Positions 3,903-27,670 of a DNA stretch of 64,000 bases are shown in pieces. This DNA is from Myxococcota bacterium (lineage in GTDB: Bacteria > Myxococcota_A > UBA9160 > JAFDDA01): the NCBI GenBank assembly GCA_965228475.1, contig OZ245817.1:4896001-4960000 (forward strand), given 5' to 3'. Position 1 is the stretch's first letter. The number at the start of each line of letters is the position of its first letter. The position numbers and the translations under genes were made by a program. Below the pieces are notes generated by a model. That model saw only the letters and a list, made by a program, of their open reading frames with translations, was not told where the DNA came from and searched no databases.

Positions 3903-4976
3903 ATGAGAGTCGCGTCTCTGGCGCTGATCGCCTCGTTGACGGCCTTCGCGGTCCCCTCGAGCGGATCAGCGGAAACGGGCCGCTTCGAGATCCACGAGGC
4001 GTGCGCCACCGGCGCGGGCTGCTTCCCGGGAGATTCGGGTGGCTACCCGGTCACGATCCTGAACCCCGGAAGCTACGTCCTCACGAGCAACCTCTCGGCG
4101 CCCGATCTCCATACCGACGTGATCCAGGTGAACCTGTTCGGCCGAGGGGTCGACGTCGATCTCAACGGATTTCGCATCGGCGGGCCGCCGTTGGCCTACC
4201 GTAACCCGGGAACGGGGCACGGCGTTTCCGTCGCGCCGACGGCCGAAGCGAACGTCTCGAACGGAACCATCCGCGGGGTCGGCGGCTCGGGCGTGACCGG
4301 CGGGCCTGGAACCCGGGTCGAGAACGTGCTCATCGTCGGCGTGGGCCGGTCGGGCGTCGAAGGCTCCGTCGGCTACGTCGGCGACGCCACGCTGGCCGCG
4401 AACGTCGGCTATGGCCTCGATCTCGATGCTGGCGCGACCACGGCGATGGCCCGGACCGTGATACGTGGCAACAACCTCGGCTCCTTCGGCACCGATGGGG
4501 TCGTGGTCGAGCTCGGTGGCAACGGCTGTGAAGACTCGCGCTGCGACTCGATGGGCCGAAAGAAGTTCTACCTGACGACGGAGTTCTTCCGGGCCTTCGA
4601 GGCGCCGGGTGCCTGCGACGAGGGCTTCCACATGGCGTCGCTCTTCGAAATGATCGACCCCTCGGACCTCGTCTACGATGTCGGCCGCGGGACCGTCCAG
4701 GCGGACAGCGGCCTGGGGCCTCCTACCGGATCGCTCACGCTCAACCTGGGCTGGGTCCGGACCGGCTACTCCGCCAACCGGGTCGGGGACGACGGCCGTG
4801 GCAACTGTGAGGCGTACGCCGACCCGATGCCGGGCTTCTCGGACGTCGGAAGCGTCGTTTCGCTCCAGCCCTTCCTCGGTGCCGCCCGTGCGGTCTCCCC
4901 CTGGAGTACCTCGGGCGGCGGGCCCCCCGACGCCGAATGCTACGCGGACAATCGCGTCTGGTGCGTCCAGGACTAG
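3903..4976 (+). CDS. Secreted protein (paralog 2)
   Basis: GGAGG RBS; signal peptide; same motifs and same VWCVQD end as 2829-3890. Confidence 0.75.
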   Translation: MRVASLALIASLTAFAVPSSGSAETGRFEIHEACATGAGCFPGDSGGYPVTILNPGSYVLTSNLSAPDLHTDVIQVNLFGRGVDVDLNGFRIGGPPLAYRNPGTGHGVSVAPTAEANVSNGTIRGVGGSGVTGGPGTRVENVLIVGVGRSGVEGSVGYVGDATLAANVGYGLDLDAGATTAMARTVIRGNNLGSFGTDGVVVELGGNGCEDSRCDSMGRKKFYLTTEFFRAFEAPGACDEGFHMASLFEMIDPSDLVYDVGRGTVQADSGLGPPTGSLTLNLGWVRTGYSANRVGDDGRGNCEAYADPMPGFSDVGSVVSLQPFLGAARAVSPWSTSGGGPPDAECYADNRVWCVQD

Positions 4977-21266: not shown

Positions 21267-22322
21267 CTAGGGGGCAAGGGGCGAGAGCCCGCGCTGACCC
21301 TCCAGCTGCGTCGGATCCGCGGCCTGCTCCGAGCCCAGCCGGGCCGCCTGGGAGAAGACGCCCTTGCGCTCGATGTAGGTTCGCCCGCGGAGCTCTTCCA
21401 TCCACTTCTCGTACTCGGTCTCGAGCCGCTCGTTGTAGATCTCGGTGTAGAGGTCCTGCTCGACGTCCGCGTAGTCCACGCGCTCGAAGCCGCGCCGCTC
21501 GACGACCTGGAAGAGGTTGCAGCCGAAGGGCATCTCGATCACTTCGGAGACGCCGCCGACGGGCAGGCCGCGCACCGCGTCCGCCATCCACGGCGCGATG
21601 TCCTCTTCGTGCACCCAGCCGACGTCGCCGCCGTTCTGGGGGTTCATGTCCGAGATTTCGCGCGCCACGGTGACGAAGTCCTCCCCGCCCTGGATGCGCA
21701 CGAGGCCGGCGCGCGTGCTCCCGCAGGCCTCCTCCATGCTGCGCGGGCCGTCCTTGCCGCCCGCGCGGACCAGGTGCCGCAGGTGCATCTCGTCGCCGCC
21801 GCTGCGCTGGCTCGCGTAGCGCCGGGCGTAGAGCTCCTTCACTTCCTTTTCTTCGATCTGGACCTTCGACCGCACCATCCCGTTCAGGATCTTCGTGCGC
21901 TGGATCTCGCCGCGGATCTTCTCGCGGTACTCCTCGAAGTCGACGTCGTGACTCTCGAGGCTCTCCTTGAGCTGATCCATCGTGATGCCGTTCTCGGTGG
22001 CGATGCTCTCGATGGCGGCGTCGATCTCGGCGTCGCTCGCCTCGAGCTCCATGTTCCGCACCACCTGCTCGACGAGCCGCCGCTCGATCAGCCGCTCGAG
22101 CATGTCCGAGCGGATCATGTCGATGTCGCGGTCCGTCGCGCCGGCGGCGCGCATCTTCTCTTCCATCGGGTCGGTGACGCGCGTGACCTCGGAGATCAGC
22201 ACGACGTCGGAGCCGACCTGCGCGGCGATCCCGTCGATCAGCTCCTCGGTCGCGGCGCCCGCGGGCGGTGCGGCGAGCGCGGCGGCGGTGAAGAGCGCGA
22301 GTGCGGAAAGCGGACGCAGCAT
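21267..22322 (-). CDS. surA: SurA-type periplasmic chaperone/parvulin PPIase
   Basis: Signal peptide, [16 protein letters not shown] SurA N-domain, [12 protein letters not shown]...GGDVGW parvulin motif. Confidence 0.85.
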
Positions 22323-22401
22323 GAGACCTCCGAGGTTCGGACACCGCACGGTGACCCTCGGGTTCGGACCGATCGCGAGGGGGCGGGGGTGCGCCGGGAT
22401 C

Positions 22402-23895
22402 TTAACTTGGCTCGGGGATCGGGTCTCGGGCCGTGTCGAGGGGGGGCTCGGCCTCGAGGCGGGCGCGCGCGCGGGCGAGGCGGGTTCGCCGCGCCTTCGG
22501 TTCCAAGGGATGGAAGGGCTCCATGCGGCGCGCGGCGCGGCCTTCGCCGCGGGGCTTCGCCGGGCCCGCTGCGCCCGGGGTCTTCTCCGCGCGGGCGAGG
22601 ACGTCGCGGCAGGTCCGCCAGAGGGTCGCCCGATCGGCCTTGCCGGGGCGAAGCTCGAGCGGCGGCTCCGGGCCCACGGCCAGGGCGTCCGGCCCCGCCG
22701 GCTCGCAGCCGGCGATGGGGAGCCCCTGCCCGATCCGCGCCACCGGCCGGCCGCTCGCGGCAAGCTCCGGGCAGCGCCGGGAGAGGTAGCGGGCACCCGC
22801 CAGGTAGTGGCCGTTGGTGACGACCCTCCGGCCCGCGGCGTCCCGGGCCCCGAAGGAGAGCTGGCGGTAGCGCTTGGGCTCGCCGCAGAAATCCATCCCG
22901 GCCAGGACGAAGCGGGCGGCGCCGAGCTCGGCGGCCAGGGCGAGCATGGTTTCCGAGACGGTCGTGACGGGCTCCGCGAGCACGGGCAGGCCCGCGCGCT
23001 GCCACGCCACCTGGTGGAGGTGGGGCGTCTCCAGGTGGAAGAGCACGGTCTTCCCGGGCCAGCGGTCGAGCAGCGCGGGCCGGACCGAGGTGTCGGCGAG
23101 CAGCACGCCGAAGTCGCCCGCGAGACCCTCGACGAAGGTCTCGAACTCGTGAGGGTCCGGCGCCACCACGAAGTCGGCGGTGACGCCCGCTTCCTCGAGC
23201 GGACGAAGCGCCTGGAGCGCGGCGAAGACGACGCCCCCCTCGCGGCGGCGAAGGGCCGCGAGGGCCTCCGCGTCGAGGGAGGGCCCCGGGGAGATGCAGA
23301 GAGCCGTCCGTCCGGCGCAGCACCCGGCGAGCTCCGCAGCCGTTCGTAGGTAGGGGATGCGCTCGAGCGCATCGATCGCGCGTTCGCTCACGACGGCGTC
23401 GCGCACGCGGAGCGGCTCGCGGGCTCCGCCGCCGAGTTCCGAGCGCGCAGCTTCGACGAGCCGCGCCGCGATGACGCGCGCCTCGAACCGGCACAGCTCG
23501 GTGTAGCCCGGGTGCAGCAGCAGCCGGCTCCCGCGCCGCCGCCCGGGGCACGCTTCGAGCCAGCGGTCGAGCGCTTCGAGATCCGAGACGACCGGCACCG
23601 GGGACGGCACGCGCTGCGCGCCGAGCTCGCCGGTGATCTCGGGGAACGGATCGAAGGCCACGGCGTCCGCGCCGACCGCCGCGAGGGCTTCGGGCACGTA
23701 GCCGAGCCCCAACCCGAGGAGCACCAGGCCGCCGCCGCCCGCAAGCTCGCCGGCCGCCCCCCGAGCGAAGCCCTCCGCCTCCCGCCGCGGCGCATAGCGG
23801 CTGTGGACGAAGCGCTCGCCGATCCGGAGCGTCGGCTCCCCGTCCCGGGAAGCCTCCGTCGCCCACTCGATCCCGGGCACCGCCGCTTGACTCAA
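22402..23895 (-). CDS. Maf/DUF115 (MptE-like) protein
   Basis: [31 protein letters not shown] motifs. Start uncertain. Confidence 0.75.
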
Positions 23896-24092
23896 TCCGG
23901 GCCCCTCCCTGCCCCTCACTTCGGTGCAACTCGCCGGCAGGTTGAGCCGGAGAGGGGCGCCTGGAGCGCCCTCTCCACGGCACCGCAAGAATTGGACCTC
24001 GATCGGCGGCCAAAATGGGAAGTAGGTACTTGATGCAATGGCGCACCAGTCCACCGGACCGCAGTCTTCGCTGTTAGTTCGGCGTGAGCGGC

Positions 24093-24464
24093 CTAGTCCG
24101 TCAGGTTCTTGGAGCGGATCTCGTGAGCGTGAACTCCGGACTCAATCTCGTTGATGAGCTTGAGCACCGCCTCGGTGGCGTCGCCCGCCTGTTGACGCAT
24201 GTGGATCCCTAGGTGGCCGATCAGCTCAACGGCTCGTTGCGCGAACTCGTGGAGCGTTGAGAGGTCGGCGATCTGCCGCTCCCGCAGCTCGTCGGTCAGG
24301 GCGTAGAGATTCGACGCGGTGGAGGCCGCGCCGAGCACGTCCGTGACCCAGGCGTTCGTGCTCTTGCCGGAGCGCGCCGCCGCAACCGAGACGGCCCGGT
24401 GAACCTCGGGACTCATCCGAATGCCCATCATCACCCGTTCGGTTTTCTCGGGGGTTGTAGTCAA
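24093..24464 (-). CDS. Ribbon-helix-helix (Arc/HicB-like) DNA-binding protein
   Basis: GIRMSPEVHRAVSVAAARSGKSTNAWV RHH pattern; GGGAGG RBS and TTG start 20 nt after the tRNA CCA. Confidence 0.75.
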   Translation of the reverse strand: MTTTPEKTERVMMGIRMSPEVHRAVSVAAARSGKSTNAWVTDVLGAASTASNLYALTDELRERQIADLSTLHEFAQRAVELIGHLGIHMRQQAGDATEAVLKLINEIESGVHAHEIRSKNLTD

Positions 24465-24483
24465 AGCTCCCTCCCTGGCGATT

Positions 24484-24573
24484 TGGCGGAGAGGGTGGGA
24501 TTCGAACCCACGGGGGGTGTAGGCCCCCAGGCGATTTTGAGTCGCCCGCCTTAAGCCGCTCGGCCACCTCTCC
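24484..24573 (-). tRNA. 90-nt class II tRNA: serine-identity body with CAA (Leu) anticodon
   Basis: GGAGAGG-TG-GCC GAGCGGCTTAA GGC-G-GGCGA CTCAAAA TCGCC-T-GGGGG CCTACA CCCCC-C-GTGGG TTCGAAT CCCAC-CCTCTCC-G-CCA; all stems pair; anticodon at 24539-24537. Confidence 0.92.
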
Positions 24574-24585
24574 GCCGTGATAGCG

Positions 24586-24614
24586 GAGTTAGCAACCAGG
24601 CATCTGATACGCAA
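24586..24614 (-). promoter_or_regulatory. Putative promoter of the tRNA-RHH operon
   Basis: TTGCGT-N17-TAACTC, ending 12 nt before the tRNA 5' end. Confidence 0.45.
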
Positions 24615-24632
24615 GAAATCTCGCACCCGCCC

Positions 24633-24670
24633 AAAAAAAGCGGGGCACGGGTCCTACACCCCCGTGCCCC
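24633..24670 (-). terminator. Intrinsic terminator
   Basis: Perfect 10-bp stem GGGGCACGGG/CCCGTGCCCC, 9-nt loop, then GC and 7 T on the minus strand. Confidence 0.85.
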
Positions 24671-24770
24671 TAGTTCGCGGTGGCCGAGCGGCCTAGTCCG
24701 CGTAACAGTCTTCCTCCGCTAGAGCGGATGGTCTTGGCGGCCCCTTTAGGGGGAGGTGTCCTTCACGACA
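24633..24770 (-). ncRNA. Candidate anti-tRNA small RNA (~140 nt)
   Basis: Putative promoter upstream, several hairpins, 3' terminator; two hairpins are complementary to the adjacent tRNA. Confidence 0.65.
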
Positions 24771-24776
24771 ACTCGC

Positions 24777-24806
24777 GTGTTACACCACCGCACTCGTGGG
24801 TCGCAA
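24777..24806 (-). promoter_or_regulatory. Putative promoter of the small RNA
   Basis: TTGCGA-N18-TAACAC, same pattern as the tRNA promoter. Confidence 0.4.
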
Positions 24807-24824
24807 GTATCCAGATTCTAAGCA

Positions 24825-24866
24825 ATTTCCGTGCCTTGACAAGTCGTGTCAAAAGGCACTGGAAAT
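24825..24866. promoter_or_regulatory. Long inverted repeat in the divergent control region
   Basis: ATTTCC-GTGCC-TTGACA-AGTCG-TGTCAA-AA-GGCAC-T-GGAAAT. Confidence 0.6.
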
Positions 24867-24973
24867 CAACATCTTTCCAAGCGCGTTGGATGGCTGCGGC
24901 GGAACGAAAGTTCACTACTTGGGAACTATCTTCTTATTTGCAATAAAGTAAAAGATACTGTATCGTCTTGGGT

Positions 24974-25966
24974 ATGGCGAAGAAGCACCCCCGCAACCCG
25001 ATCCTCGACGCGCTCCGCGAGGCAAGCCAGGACGAGGCGAAGGCCGTCGAGCTGCTTGAGGCTCGCCGCTTCGGCGACACGCCCGGCTGCCCCCGTTGCG
25101 GGGACACCGACGTCTACAAGATGCGGGACCGAAAGACGGGCGAGCGCGAGAAGAACTACCGATGGCGCTGCCGCGGCTGCAAGAAGATGTTCACGGTTCG
25201 CACCGGGACGATATTCGAGGAGACGCGGCTGCCGCTGCGCGTGTGGGTCTACGCTTTCTGGAAAGCGTGCGCGTCGAAGAAGGGTATCAGCGCCCTACAG
25301 ATCAGCCGGGAGTGCGAGATCAGCTACAAGAGCGCGCTCTATCTCATGCACCGCATCCGATATGCCATGCTCGAAGATCCCAGTGGCCAGCCGAAGCTCT
25401 CCGGCACGGTCGAAGTTGACGAGACGTTCGTCGGCGGAAAGCCGCGCCACTCCGTCCGAACGAAGATCAACCCGGTCACCGGAATGAAGCACCAGTACCT
25501 CCCGGCCTCCGCGAAGCCTGGTGGTTCGCCGAAGGTTCCCGTCGTTGCTCTGGTCGAGCGTGGAGGCCGTGTCCGTGCGCGTCAGATTGAGCGGGTGGAT
25601 CGCGAGTCTCTAGGCGGTGCCGTCCACGAGCTGGTCGAGTCTGGCGCAACGATCCATACCGATGAGAACCCGAGCTACCGCCACCTCGGCGCGCGCTACT
25701 CGCACGACTCCGTGAACCACACGCGGAAGGAGTACGTTCGTGGCGATGTGACTACCAACACGGTGGAAGGTTTCTTCTCCCTGCTCAAGCGTGGCGTCTA
25801 CGGGACGTTCCACTCCGTGAGCAAGCATCATCTTCATCGCTATCTGGCCGAGTTTGAGTTTCGGTACAACCACCGAGAACTCGACGACGGGGCGCGGACC
25901 CTCGCCGCTATCGACGGGGGAGAAGGGAAGCGCCTTTTGTATGAGCGATCTCCGACAACGGTCTAG
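24974..25966 (+). CDS. IS1595-family transposase
   Basis: Zn ribbon CPRCG...WRCRGCKK, HTH, VEVDET, IHTDE, TNTVEGFFSLLKRG, YLAEFEFRYN. Confidence 0.95.
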   Translation: MAKKHPRNPILDALREASQDEAKAVELLEARRFGDTPGCPRCGDTDVYKMRDRKTGEREKNYRWRCRGCKKMFTVRTGTIFEETRLPLRVWVYAFWKACASKKGISALQISRECEISYKSALYLMHRIRYAMLEDPSGQPKLSGTVEVDETFVGGKPRHSVRTKINPVTGMKHQYLPASAKPGGSPKVPVVALVERGGRVRARQIERVDRESLGGAVHELVESGATIHTDENPSYRHLGARYSHDSVNHTRKEYVRGDVTTNTVEGFFSLLKRGVYGTFHSVSKHHLHRYLAEFEFRYNHRELDDGARTLAAIDGGEGKRLLYERSPTTV

Positions 25967-25990
25967 TGGCGTACAGCTCCAACTTAAGCT

Positions 25991-26458
25991 CTAGCCCTGG
26001 ATCGTCACGCTGTGCTGCTTGATCTCAATGAAGAGTCTTCGGTCCTTCGCAGTCAGCCTGCGGTTGTGCTCCAGCTCGATCAGCTCAAGAGAGTGCTTGA
26101 CGCGGGCAAGCTCGCTCGCCTTGGTCTCGTTGCATTCGAGCGAGACCACGCCGAGGTTGCGCATTTTTGTGCGGCTACCCTTCGGCAGCCGTCGACTCGT
26201 CACCTCCTTGAAGTCCTTGTAGTTTCGTGTGACCAGAACCGCTCCGAGGTCATTCCCCGCCATCGCGATGACCTCGTCGGGTGACTGAAGGAGAAGGAGA
26301 TCGGAAACGTGGACGGTCTCGTGGTGCGCCGCCTTCAGTTCGTCGGCAACCCACAGGGGGACGTTCTCATCAATAAGGAAACGGATCCGTGGCTTGAGGC
26401 TCGGGTCAGCCGGCCTTGCGTCGTCGTGAGCGTTCGTCTCGGATCGCTGCCTTGACAT
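25991..26458 (-). CDS. PIN-like (DUF5615/Mut7-C type) toxin
   Basis: FLIDENVP...SPDEVI...LVTRNYKDF motifs; follows a DUF433 gene. Start uncertain. Confidence 0.8.
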   Translation of the reverse strand: MSRQRSETNAHDDARPADPSLKPRIRFLIDENVPLWVADELKAAHHETVHVSDLLLLQSPDEVIAMAGNDLGAVLVTRNYKDFKEVTSRRLPKGSRTKMRNLGVVSLECNETKASELARVKHSLELIELEHNRRLTAKDRRLFIEIKQHSVTIQG

Positions 26459-27047
26459 CCTTCTCAGTCAGTGTCGGGAAGCCGTCTACGATCTCTTCAA
26501 CGGTCATCCCAGAGCTGAAGTACCGCCAGATCAAACTGCTGGGAATCCGTGTTCCTGCAATCACTTGACGCCCGTTGAGGACATTCCTCCGTTTCGAGAG
26601 TTTCCCGATATCGGAGTCCTTCCGTGACCGCTTGCGCTTCAGAAGCCGCACGGTGTCGCTCCGCACTTCCTCAAGGTCGATCACCAGGATCGGGGTTTGC
26701 CTGTGAGGTTTCGTTGAGACGACTTCGTCAGTCCTAGGATCTCGGTACAGAAGCTCCTTCCCGGACAGAAAGAACTTGATGCTGGCCCACGGGTTGGGGT
26801 GATCTTCGTGAAACTCCTCATGGAGCGCACGATCTACCTTCCGAAGCTCTTGGAGGGGCACCCGCGTCCTGATCGGCGCGATGGCGCGAAGACCCACCAG
26901 GTCCCGGAACGAGTACACCCTTCGGTCGTCAACCAGGTACTCAGGGGAGAAGAAGTCAGTCTTGTCCCAGTATCGGAGTTGACGCTTGCTCAGTCCCGTC
27001 AGCTCCGCGACTTGGTCCTCGCCGAAGTAGGCGATCGAGTCAGTCAT
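26406..27047 (-). CDS. MerR-HTH plus DUF433 antitoxin
   Basis: VAELTGLSKRQLRYWD N-terminal HTH; GRQVIAGTRIP...GMTVEEIVDGFPTLTEKDVKAA DUF433. Confidence 0.85.
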   Translation of the reverse strand: MTDSIAYFGEDQVAELTGLSKRQLRYWDKTDFFSPEYLVDDRRVYSFRDLVGLRAIAPIRTRVPLQELRKVDRALHEEFHEDHPNPWASIKFFLSGKELLYRDPRTDEVVSTKPHRQTPILVIDLEEVRSDTVRLLKRKRSRKDSDIGKLSKRRNVLNGRQVIAGTRIPSSLIWRYFSSGMTVEEIVDGFPTLTEKDVKAAIRDERSRRRKAG

Positions 27048-27222
27048 CCGAGCACACCCCTATTGTTGCGTCCGAGCGGTTCGCTACCGTTCGGACGTCG
27101 GATGTGCCGACAGAGATTCCTCCTAAGACCTCGCCGGGCCAGGGCGGGGTCTTTGGTTTTCTGGGCCACGGCGGAAACCGGCCCTTCGGGTAGTCTCACC
27201 CCCCACACGCTATATTCCCGCT

Positions 27223-27372
27223 GTGGCTGATCCGGTCAAGCGCCCCGGCCCCGAGCCGGAGACATTGAAGGTCGAAATCGACCCCGAAGAGGGGTTGGCT
27301 CGCCTCTTGCGCGCCCAGCCGAAGCCGCCTCCGAAGGCGAAGAAAAAGCCCTCGAAGCGCCGGAAGTCCTAG
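27223..27372 (+). CDS. Small basic protein, 49 aa (not in ORF track)
   Basis: GTG start 6 nt after TATATT; MADPVKRPGPEPETLKVEIDPEEGLARLLRAQPKPPPKAKKKPSKRRKS. Confidence 0.55.
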   Translation: MADPVKRPGPEPETLKVEIDPEEGLARLLRAQPKPPPKAKKKPSKRRKS

Positions 27373-27515
27373 TCCTGGCCCTCTAGGGCCGCAGCGATCC
27401 TCTCCAGCGCCTCAGCGATCCGCCCAAATACCTGAACGATATTCGGATCTTCTCCGATCTTGGGAACGCGGTTGAAGGCATCGTTGACAGCCTGTGCGAG
27501 TGAGTCCTTGCTCAT
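27369..27515 (-). CDS. Small helical protein, 48 aa (not in ORF track)
   Basis: MSKDSLAQAVNDAFNRVPKIGEDPNIVQVFGRIAEALERIAAALEGQD; its stop overlaps the convergent ORF stop at CTAG. Confidence 0.45.
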   Translation of the reverse strand: MSKDSLAQAVNDAFNRVPKIGEDPNIVQVFGRIAEALERIAAALEGQD

Positions 27516-27581
27516 GGGTCACCAGGCTAACCGCAGGGCTCCGAACGCACAACGAACCGATAGACCGGCTACTTAGGCGAT

Positions 27582-27611
27582 TCCAATGCAATTCCGCGGC
27601 ATTGCATTGGA
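27582..27611. repeat. Subterminal palindrome of the IS right end
   Basis: TCCAATGCAAT-N8-ATTGCATTGGA. Confidence 0.8.
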
Positions 27612-27670
27612 TCCATACTTCCGGCCAAAATGGAGCTTTCCGGGACGGATTGGTGCCCTAGGCTCTCGCC

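Follow-up and report, generated by a model that had tools for sequence, protein, structure and literature searches.

Which amino acid would be delivered by a transfer RNA (tRNA) that combines the body of a serine tRNA with the anticodon of a leucine tRNA, and how does such a gene come to stand in a bacterial genome? The question is raised by a 90-nucleotide (nt) gene in a 64-kb stretch of contig OZ245817.1 from a Myxococcota bacterium (positions 4,896,001 to 4,960,000 of the forward strand), which we call the window. Judged from its sequence, we put at roughly 60% the probability that this gene encodes a class II tRNA, intact and of serine identity, with the anticodon CAA, that it is a passenger of a recently transposed IS1595-family element, and that it would cause low-level leucine-to-serine mistranslation.

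24484..24573, minus strand: tRNA with a serine-type body and the anticodon CAA (ARAGORN, Rfam, serine and leucine covariance models).

This is the sole tRNA that ARAGORN calls in the window, and the program labels it tRNA-Leu from its anticodon. The Rfam tRNA model scores it at 56.3 bits (gathering score, 29). Its acceptor stem consists of seven Watson-Crick pairs (G1-C72, G2-C71, A3-U70, G4-C69, A5-U68, G6-C67, and G7-C66) and its D stem of three (GCC/GGC), with G15 present. The anticodon stem GGCGA/UCGCC, which includes G30-C40, encloses the loop CUCAAAA (U33, C34). In the variable region, U44 precedes a 5-bp stem (GGGGG/CCCCC) with the 6-nt loop CCUACA, and C48 follows immediately; the T arm is standard (stem GUGGG/CCCAC), and both G73 and the CCA end are encoded. 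The original prediction had listed G1-C72, G2-C71, A3-U70, G73, G15-C48, and a variable stem running directly into C48 as serine features, and all of them are present in the sequence. Its description of an intact gene with CCA, not a decaying pseudogene, likewise agrees with the Watson-Crick pairing of every stem listed here.

Serine identity resides in the variable arm, not the anticodon, and bacterial tRNA-Ser molecules conserve G1-C72 and G2-C71, according to the available part of a recent review (Giege and Eriani 2023, PMC9976931). The bacterial tRNA-Ser identity set is complete in the CAA tRNA: the long variable arm, G73, G1-C72, G2-C71, and the weaker G30-C40. A serine anticodon (NGA or GCU) is not present, and CAA stands in its place; the anticodon is no determinant for seryl-tRNA synthetase (SerRS), but it is the source of the mismatch. 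The same part of the review gives A73, A15-U48, G18G19, and A20a as needed in tRNA-Leu from Escherichia coli and G73 as an antideterminant for leucyl-tRNA synthetase (LeuRS) (PMC9976931). In place of A73, A15-U48, and a leucine-type D loop, with its placement of G18G19 and its A20a, the CAA tRNA has G73, G15-C48, and a serine-type D arm.

Comparison with the host's own tRNAs gives the same result. Nucleotides 1 to 27 and the last 29 nt are identical to those of host tRNA-Ser(GGA), with the differences confined to the anticodon and variable arms; over the whole length the two agree in 74 of 93 aligned columns, versus 54 to 61 of 94 to 104 columns for the five host leucine tRNAs. All four host serine tRNAs have G15, a variable stem set between U44 and C48, and G73, while all five host leucine tRNAs have A15, an additional unpaired G47 ahead of U48, and A73. 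Isotype-specific covariance scoring had been suggested as a check, and for this purpose a serine model (R1) was built from 13 serine tRNAs and a leucine model (R2) from 12 leucine tRNAs of relatives, with the host tRNAs held out for scoring. The CAA tRNA scores 105.9 bits with the serine model and 68.7 bits with the leucine model, even though 8 of the 12 training sequences of the latter carry CAA. The held-out host tRNAs separate cleanly: the four serine tRNAs score 88.8 to 104.2 bits (serine) and 44.5 to 64.2 bits (leucine), and the five leucine tRNAs score 40.8 to 55.2 bits (serine) and 77.8 to 108.3 bits (leucine; the top value belongs to a training member). The CAA tRNA is a bacterial serine-type body carrying a mismatched leucine anticodon.

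Could it nevertheless be an ordinary second tRNA-Leu(CAA) that is charged by LeuRS in this lineage? ARAGORN's label would say so, and the anticodon arm (G-GGCGA-CUNAAAA-UCGCC-U-GG) equals that of tRNA-Leu(UAA) in the relatives G012 and G009 except at base 34. Yet the LeuRS antideterminant G73, the G15-C48 pair, the serine-type D arm, and the variable-arm junction all oppose leucine charging, the leucine model score lies below that of every true leucine tRNA (68.7 versus 77.8 to 108.3 bits), and the host already has a genuine tRNA-Leu(CAA), which is conserved in relatives at 83 to 93% identity. We consider this explanation very improbable.

An error of sequencing or assembly at the anticodon, against which the original prediction had advised a check of the reads, is practically negligible as an explanation. 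Logan contigs from three of four public runs, belonging to two studies, span the gene at depths of 5 to 69 and match it letter for letter; they include one contig of 44,353 nt at depth 37 and one of 3,168 nt at depth 68.7. No Logan contig of the fourth run lies on this stretch, and one of the three agreeing runs may itself be the source of the assembly. Contig breaks fall at the T arm, which is common to several serine tRNAs, as expected. Because independent contigs of three runs agree, the CAA anticodon is not an assembly error.

How such a sequence arose is suggested by its parts. The loop is indeed one base away from that of a serine tRNA with the anticodon CGA, as had been pointed out; as a derivation from this lineage's own tRNA-Ser(CGA), however, the idea fails, and a simple G35A change in that gene is ruled out by its different D arm. 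The acceptor, D, and T arms equal the order-wide serine consensus, while the anticodon arm is the one shared with tRNA-Leu(UAA) of two relatives. From these sequence matches, a recombinant origin is plausible, and a serine/leucine chimera is as likely as a G35A point mutation.

The gene's location carries the argument further, for the CAA tRNA is cargo of a 3,605-bp IS1595-family transposon at 24018-27622. The ends and genes of this element are as follows.

24008..24017, no strand: left copy of the target-site duplication, GGCCAAAATG, 10 bp; both inverted ends are immediately flanked by this 10-mer.
24018..24044, plus strand: left terminal inverted repeat, GGAAGTAGGTACTTGATGCAATGGCGC, 27 nt, 74% complementary to 27596-27622 (20 of 27 positions).
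24093..24464, minus strand: gene for a HicB-like ribbon-helix-helix protein of 123 residues, with a UUG start and a GGAGG Shine-Dalgarno sequence (Pfam HicB, E 9.1e-08, residues 4-33 only).
24974..25966, plus strand: IS1595-family DDE transposase gene, 330 residues, diverging from the tRNA (Pfam DDE_Tnp_IS1595, E 1.1e-42, and N-terminal Zn_ribbon_IS1595, E 7.8e-09, both above curated cut-offs).
25991..26458, minus strand: DUF5615/PIN-like gene, given as the longest open reading frame (ORF), whose true start may be further in (Pfam DUF5615, E 2.2e-10; PIN_10).
26406..27047, minus strand: MerR-HTH plus DUF433 gene, the upstream partner of the DUF5615 gene (Pfam DUF433, E 9e-15; MerR_1).
27223..27372, plus strand: tiny ORF of 49 residues with a GTG start, the motif KRPGPEPETLKV, and a basic tail rich in Lys and Arg; it is conserved in the sister elements G528:C6 and G215:C2 and matches no Pfam family.
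27596..27622, minus strand: right terminal inverted repeat, which pairs with the left end.
27623..27632, no strand: right copy of the target-site duplication, GGCCAAAATG, a perfect 10-bp match to the left copy.

The insertion site is empty in two relatives: in G002, from the same family, homology resumes at 27624, and in G001, from the same genus, the flanking genes lie about 209 bp apart. Taken together, the inverted ends, the 10-bp duplication, and the empty sites indicate that the transposon inserted after these lineages split. Also, the GC content of the approximately 4 kb around the tRNA is 0.61 to 0.62, versus 0.66 to 0.76 in the surroundings. Close around the transposase gene, no inverted repeats with at least 10 matches were found, the actual ends lying further out, and the similarity of a possible second, inner left end just ahead of this gene is weak.

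Within the element, the tRNA and the hicB-like gene share a strand, the latter starting 19 nt downstream of the former, and the two are probably co-transcribed. The only database match to the hicB-like protein is the 123-residue form itself, and its HicB match covers the 30-residue ribbon-helix-helix part only. No HicA match was found among the scanned ORFs of the element, a scan in which small ORFs were not searched for HicA. The UUG start of the hicB-like gene, at 24464 behind the strong GGAGG, is probably a coincidence, because start codons are read by the initiator tRNA. Two exact 15-nt copies of a direct repeat, GAGCGGCCTAGTCCG, stand 600 bp apart at 24086-24100 and 24686-24700 and flank the hicB-like gene and the tRNA; one copy runs across the hicB-like stop codon. 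This repeat may mark the entry of the tRNA module into the transposon. The 49-residue ORF may encode an accessory factor of this transposon group. Outside the element, a SurA-like ORF (21267-23372, minus strand) has an N-terminal extension of about 330 residues with no counterpart in G001, and its real start is probably near 22400.

Is the tRNA a peculiarity of one copy, or does the transposon group carry such cargo more widely? When 401 phylum genomes and 225 class genomes were searched with the transposase, 20 further places came up, and each was scanned by ARAGORN and Rfam together with about 1.5 kb on each side. Mismatched class II tRNAs occur at two of these places, an ordinary tRNA-Arg lies nearby at one, and the other 17 lack a tRNA over this distance. 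The closest element, G528:C6, encodes a transposase with 78% identity, has its own 10-bp duplication, and carries the same pair of DUF5615 and DUF433 genes. Its left end lies 82 nt from the transposase start, versus 956 nt in the window's element; this shorter, tRNA-less left side indicates that about 0.9 kb was added to an older element, namely the tRNA with its hicB-like neighbour and the RNA-like region upstream. Ends similar to those described here (GGAAGTAGGTA.. / GGAAGTATGGA..) bound both the G528 and the G215 elements.

The two other tRNA-bearing elements encode transposases with 57% (G215:C2) and 42% (G120:C54) identity, and each holds a class II tRNA inside its own inverted repeats. 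The duplication of G215:C2 is 9 bp. Both tRNAs have a leucine-type body (70.5 versus 45.7 bits for G215:C2 and 65.0 versus 39.5 bits for G120:C54) and the proline anticodon UGG. The original prediction had supposed that UUG would be commoner in AT-richer invaders; the idea of such a target does not carry over to these sister elements, whose UGG tRNAs match proline codons. The tRNA of G215:C2 (L094, 6872-6960) has C33 in place of U33, together with C1-G72 and A73, and the element also has an NYN-domain gene. The combination of C1-G72 with A73 belongs to the acceptor features of bacterial tRNA-Pro, and a dual leucine/proline identity could be read from this tRNA's sequence. On plasmids, none of three IS1595 copies that we examined (<43% identity) has a tRNA within 3 kb.

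The expression signals of the CAA tRNA are ambiguous; in the region upstream of it, four features were recognized.

24586..24614, minus strand: weak promoter candidate, TTGCGT-17 nt-TAACTC, whose end lies 12 nt before G1, with the geometry TTGnnn-16/17-TAnnnT seen upstream of many host tRNAs.
24633..24662, minus strand: terminator-like hairpin with a run of seven T residues just upstream of the tRNA (terminator scan).
24679..24695, minus strand: stretch of 17 nt that, if transcribed from the minus strand, would pair with tRNA nt 6-22 through 16 Watson-Crick pairs and one G-U pair (inverted-repeat search).
24815..24842, minus strand: promoter-like site, TTGTCA-16-TAGAAT, 10 of 12 consensus positions (consensus scan).

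Together, the promoter-like site and the terminator (24633-24842) would yield an RNA of about 180 nt that ends just before the tRNA (fold z, -2.25). Besides the 17-nt stretch, the hairpin loop region at 24649-24663 is complementary to the tRNA variable arm at 14 of 15 nt. When read on the plus strand, the antisense pieces in 24633-24842 appear as tRNA-sense fragments in permuted order. They may be the scar of a capture event or a brake on the tRNA. As a feature of the family they are ruled out, since the 17-nt and 15-nt stretches were not seen in the G215:C2 or G120 elements; a 10-nt leader complement occurs at L021, a Rhodospirillaceae locus treated below.

This arrangement invites the idea that the RNA is tRNA shaped for a reason other than decoding: as an RNase P/Z processing signal that frees the ribbon-helix-helix mRNA, as a decoy or target of PIN-like or NYN nucleases, or as the partner of an antisense RNA. 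The 19-nt spacing to the hicB-like start on the same strand would fit the first of these roles, the DUF5615 and NYN genes of the elements the second, and the complementary stretches the third. There is also a precedent in the suspicion of Mukai et al. that translation makes no use of many allo-tRNA(UAU) genes lying near toxin-antitoxin systems, as stated in the accessible portion of that paper (PMC5389517). A processing signal or decoy needs no mismatch, however; a matched tRNA would be harmless and just as good, yet body and anticodon disagree in each of the three cargo tRNAs. Moreover, the antisense stretches are not found in the other two tRNA-bearing elements, and once the RNA exists, nothing would keep SerRS from charging it. 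We therefore regard a non-decoding job as distinctly unlikely.

What a decoding role would mean depends on the host. The whole genome is a single contig of 5.0 Mb for which ARAGORN lists 60 tRNA genes, about a dozen of them judged by eye to be false calls inside GC-rich coding DNA. The credible host set contains four serine isoacceptors (UGA, GCU, GGA, and CGA) and five leucine isoacceptors (UAA, UAG, CAA, GAG, and CAG), to which the mismatched tRNA is an extra. A single serS gene exceeds the family cut-off (438.1 bits). Elsewhere in this genome, two tRNA-Thr(CGU) calls (C1:1040397-1040476 and 1153046-1153121) are identical in about 49 nt on the 3' side, running from the anticodon stem through CCA, and the first has an unrelated 5' half; the pair has the look of an integrative element's duplicated attachment site.

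As had been claimed, UUG is rare in this host. In 2,814 ORFs chosen by a crude filter on GC content at third codon positions, it accounts for 2,866 of 1,202,648 codons (2.38 per 1000) and for 2.3% of leucine codons, and 1,460 of these ORFs contain at least one. Its meaning was examined in a small sample of 88 alignments from 400 kb of the relative G040, in which 49 UUG codons face 27 Leu, 7 Ile, 4 Val, 3 Thr, 2 Met, and 2 Ser. This profile is similar to those of CTC, CTG, and CTT, while TCG, AGC, and TCC face serine in 41 to 47% of cases. Reassignment of UUG is ruled out by these counts; because the codon aligns with leucine genome-wide, decoding is ambiguous at most and the code is unchanged. 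Recoding of the element's own genes is ruled out too. The transposase and the DUF433 gene have one TTG each, the DUF5615 gene has none, and the hicB-like gene has it only as the start codon. The transposase TTG is codon 322 of 331, inside a Leu-Leu pair shared with the tRNA-less G528 transposase.

The mechanism that we favor would proceed in three steps. First, the host's single bacterial-type SerRS, which does not read the anticodon, would recognize the variable arm, G73, and G1-C72/G2-C71 and charge the tRNA with serine. Second, LeuRS would reject it, given G73 for A73 and G15-C48 for A15-U48. Third, the serine-charged CAA tRNA would compete with tRNA-Leu(CAA) and tRNA-Leu(UAA) at UUG, so that serine would partially replace leucine. 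Competition should be possible because the anticodon loop CUCAAAA is the same as that of the genuine tRNA-Leu(CAA). Given 2.4 UUG codons per 1000 and a weak-looking promoter, the expected outcome is low-level, proteome-wide leucine-to-serine mistranslation without a changed code. The mismatch sits on a textbook, host-type tRNA-Ser, so there is no structural reason to doubt its use by the host's translation machinery. The missense suppressor first proposed, reading UUG as serine, thus keeps its serine identity beside a complete normal set of serine and leucine tRNAs, but the gene is transposon cargo and not a chromosomal oddity.

Do other genomes contain the same combination? The scans of public collections used one spelling of the serine D arm with a YUCAAAA loop after it and therefore give minimum counts: at least 8 loci in 185,579 species genomes and at least 11 in metagenome contigs, with no match to this one D-arm spelling in viral contigs. 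Intact prokaryotic cases are L021, from a Rhodospirillaceae metagenome-assembled genome, and L027. L024 is cut off by a contig end, and L020, L035, and L025 have an unpaired acceptor-stem end; L020 lies beside a relaxase on a 13.6-kb contig. Apart from L030, whose anticodon loop is of odd size, the remaining loci comprise five fragments, three without a tRNA, and four eukaryote-type tRNA-Leu(CAA) genes with A73, which were among the 11 metagenome matches and were set aside. Every full-length prokaryotic tRNA with this pattern scores as serine type with the two covariance models.

The L021 tRNA scores 92.2 bits for serine versus 62.9 bits for leucine. Its anticodon stem is of the tRNA-Ser(UGA) type, unlike that of the window's tRNA, which indicates an independent origin of the combination there. 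An ORF about 270 nt away from it contains an IS1595 zinc ribbon (E 4.3e-05, slightly short of the Pfam cut-off) and matches the window's transposase over 130 residues. A conserved module of tRNA and hicB-like gene is ruled out, as tblastn gave no match of the hicB-like protein at the loci of other serine/CAA tRNAs.

Some of these loci have features of their own. At L021, a second odd tRNA (4123-4197) has an Arg-like body (GCGCCCG acceptor), the anticodon UGG, and one mismatched anticodon-stem pair, and the leader of the serine/CAA tRNA (4040-4054) is able to fold with the first 12 nt of that same tRNA into a hairpin of about 11 bp. The L027 tRNA (2437-2539), on a 391-kb metagenome contig, has a variable region of about 31 nt; its neighbours, an Abi_2/HEPN-like gene and a fragment of a helicase, give it a setting like that of a defence island. 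On another metagenome contig, L030 (638-726) is of serine type, with G73, CCA, and 83.2 bits in the serine model; its anticodon loop has 6 or 8 nt around UCAAA, and ARAGORN calls a two-base anticodon.

Several of the observations weigh against a working mistranslating tRNA. A serine body with CAA was not found in any of 40 relatives, where the top non-self match, 81% identical, is an ordinary tRNA-Ser, and the closest sister element, G528:C6, has no tRNA by ARAGORN and Rfam, which makes the cargo recent and dispensable to the element. The promoter candidate at 24586-24614 matches about 5 of 12 consensus positions, its -10 box lacks the final T, and it is not listed by the consensus scan; a strong terminator-like hairpin separates the tRNA from the better promoter upstream. 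Among the sequencing runs listed, none is an RNA run, a result that counts neither for nor against expression. The genome shows no sign of adaptation of UUG, and the element's genes are independent of this codon. Finally, most matches to the pattern elsewhere are fragments or have imperfect acceptor stems, so such sequences can also arise as debris.

Much of this would suit a silent or nearly silent passenger, that is, a serine-type gene or serine/leucine chimera that was captured recently, is intact only through youth, and has no function. The gene is a singleton, its direct promoter is weak with a terminator ahead of it, and its flanks hold scrambled, inverted tRNA pieces and the 15-nt direct repeats 600 bp apart, as if from a messy capture. 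Against this stand the gene itself, in which all 22 stem pairs are Watson-Crick and CCA is kept, and the company it keeps. Three elements of the transposase group carry class II tRNAs, and body and anticodon disagree in all three; the bodies are those of serine or leucine tRNAs, isotypes whose synthetases ignore the anticodon, and L021 reached the serine/CAA combination independently. We judge a functionless passenger to be somewhat unlikely.

Because the sister elements carry mismatched leucine/UGG tRNAs and L021 arrived independently at serine/CAA, selection seems to favor the mismatch itself. The actual unit is a mobile element, and its relatives too carry mismatched class II tRNAs; serine insertion at UUG, as first proposed, is the best reading, though an unproven one. 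Our guess is that the tRNA would be a dosed translational poison serving the element in addiction, stress response, or defence, and that the co-transcribed ribbon-helix-helix protein would restrain it, possibly aided by the upstream antisense stretches. A bolder form of this guess, which is speculative and on present evidence unlikely, is that a widespread, undescribed IS1595-type group uses mismatched class II tRNAs as the mobile poison or toxin of an addiction or abortive-defence module, restrained by the element (here through the ribbon-helix-helix protein and the upstream RNA with its 17-nt complement to the tRNA) and released under stress or infection to scramble the proteome at one codon.

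Natural code-breaking tRNAs are known from few cases (CUG-clade yeasts, tRNA-ProX, and allo-tRNAs), and their purpose is an open question. A small transposon with clean ends makes such a tRNA a horizontally transferable unit of mistranslation. If our reading is true, mobile elements join the tuners of translational fidelity, and naming tRNAs by their anticodon alone mislabels a class of them.

Among insertion sequences, the window's element resembles the IS1595 family in its DDE_Tnp_IS1595 transposase with an N-terminal zinc ribbon, its short inverted repeats, its target duplication, and its passengers between the ends. Subgroups of this family that carry passengers are ISNwi1 and ISNha5 (ISfinder), and the family's target duplication is usually 8 bp. 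Here, the duplication is 10 bp, with 9 to 10 bp in the two sister elements, and the passengers include an identity-mismatched tRNA. Our literature search found no paper on IS1595 elements with tRNA cargo or on transposon-borne mistranslating tRNAs.

Three systems offer closer parallels to the tRNA itself. First, tRNA-ProX (ProA/ProN/ProT) of Streptomyces and Kitasatospora is a natural bacterial mismatch of body and anticodon that mistranslates when expressed in E. coli, and it stands alone among the bacterial cases in the accessible part of a 2024 review in JBC (PMC11415595). As described there, tRNA-ProX has a proline body, A33/A34, and a dedicated ProRSx beside it, whereas the CAA tRNA has a serine body and U33/C34, and its element holds no synthetase gene in a host with a single serS.

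Second, CUG-clade yeasts have a tRNA-Ser(CAG), and Ascoidea has both tRNA-Ser(CAG) and tRNA-Leu(CAG), in the same part of that review (PMC11415595). The likeness lies in a serine-type tRNA with a leucine anticodon beside its cognate, with stochastic decoding as serine or leucine. The yeast case, however, concerns eukaryotic chromosomes, extends across a lineage, and is tied to reassignment of the codon, while here a single mobile copy occurs and UUG still stands for leucine.

Third, the allo-tRNAs of Acidobacteria, Clostridia, and Proteobacteria, the nearest relatives in print, likewise pair serine identity (a long variable arm and G73) with a non-serine anticodon (Mukai et al. 2017, NAR 45:2776, PMC5389517, from the accessible portion of the paper, on which the following statements about allo-tRNAs also rest). 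Their anticodons include those for UUA/UUG/CUA/CUG; they insert serine at leucine codons in E. coli, where they are toxic, and their genes often lie near toxin-antitoxin genes and once overlap a transposon-related ORF. The CAA tRNA, too, lies near toxin-antitoxin-like and transposon genes. Mukai et al. also mention polycistrons of irregular 7/5 tRNAs. Allo-tRNAs have an 8/4 or 9/3 split of the 12-bp branch between acceptor and T stems and a long, tRNA-Sec-like D stem with a tetraloop, in contrast to the 7/5 split and 3-bp D stem of the CAA tRNA. Unlike allo-tRNAs, it is a plain tRNA-Ser with three arms identical to those of the host lineage's own, and it lies inside a delimited IS1595 transposon.

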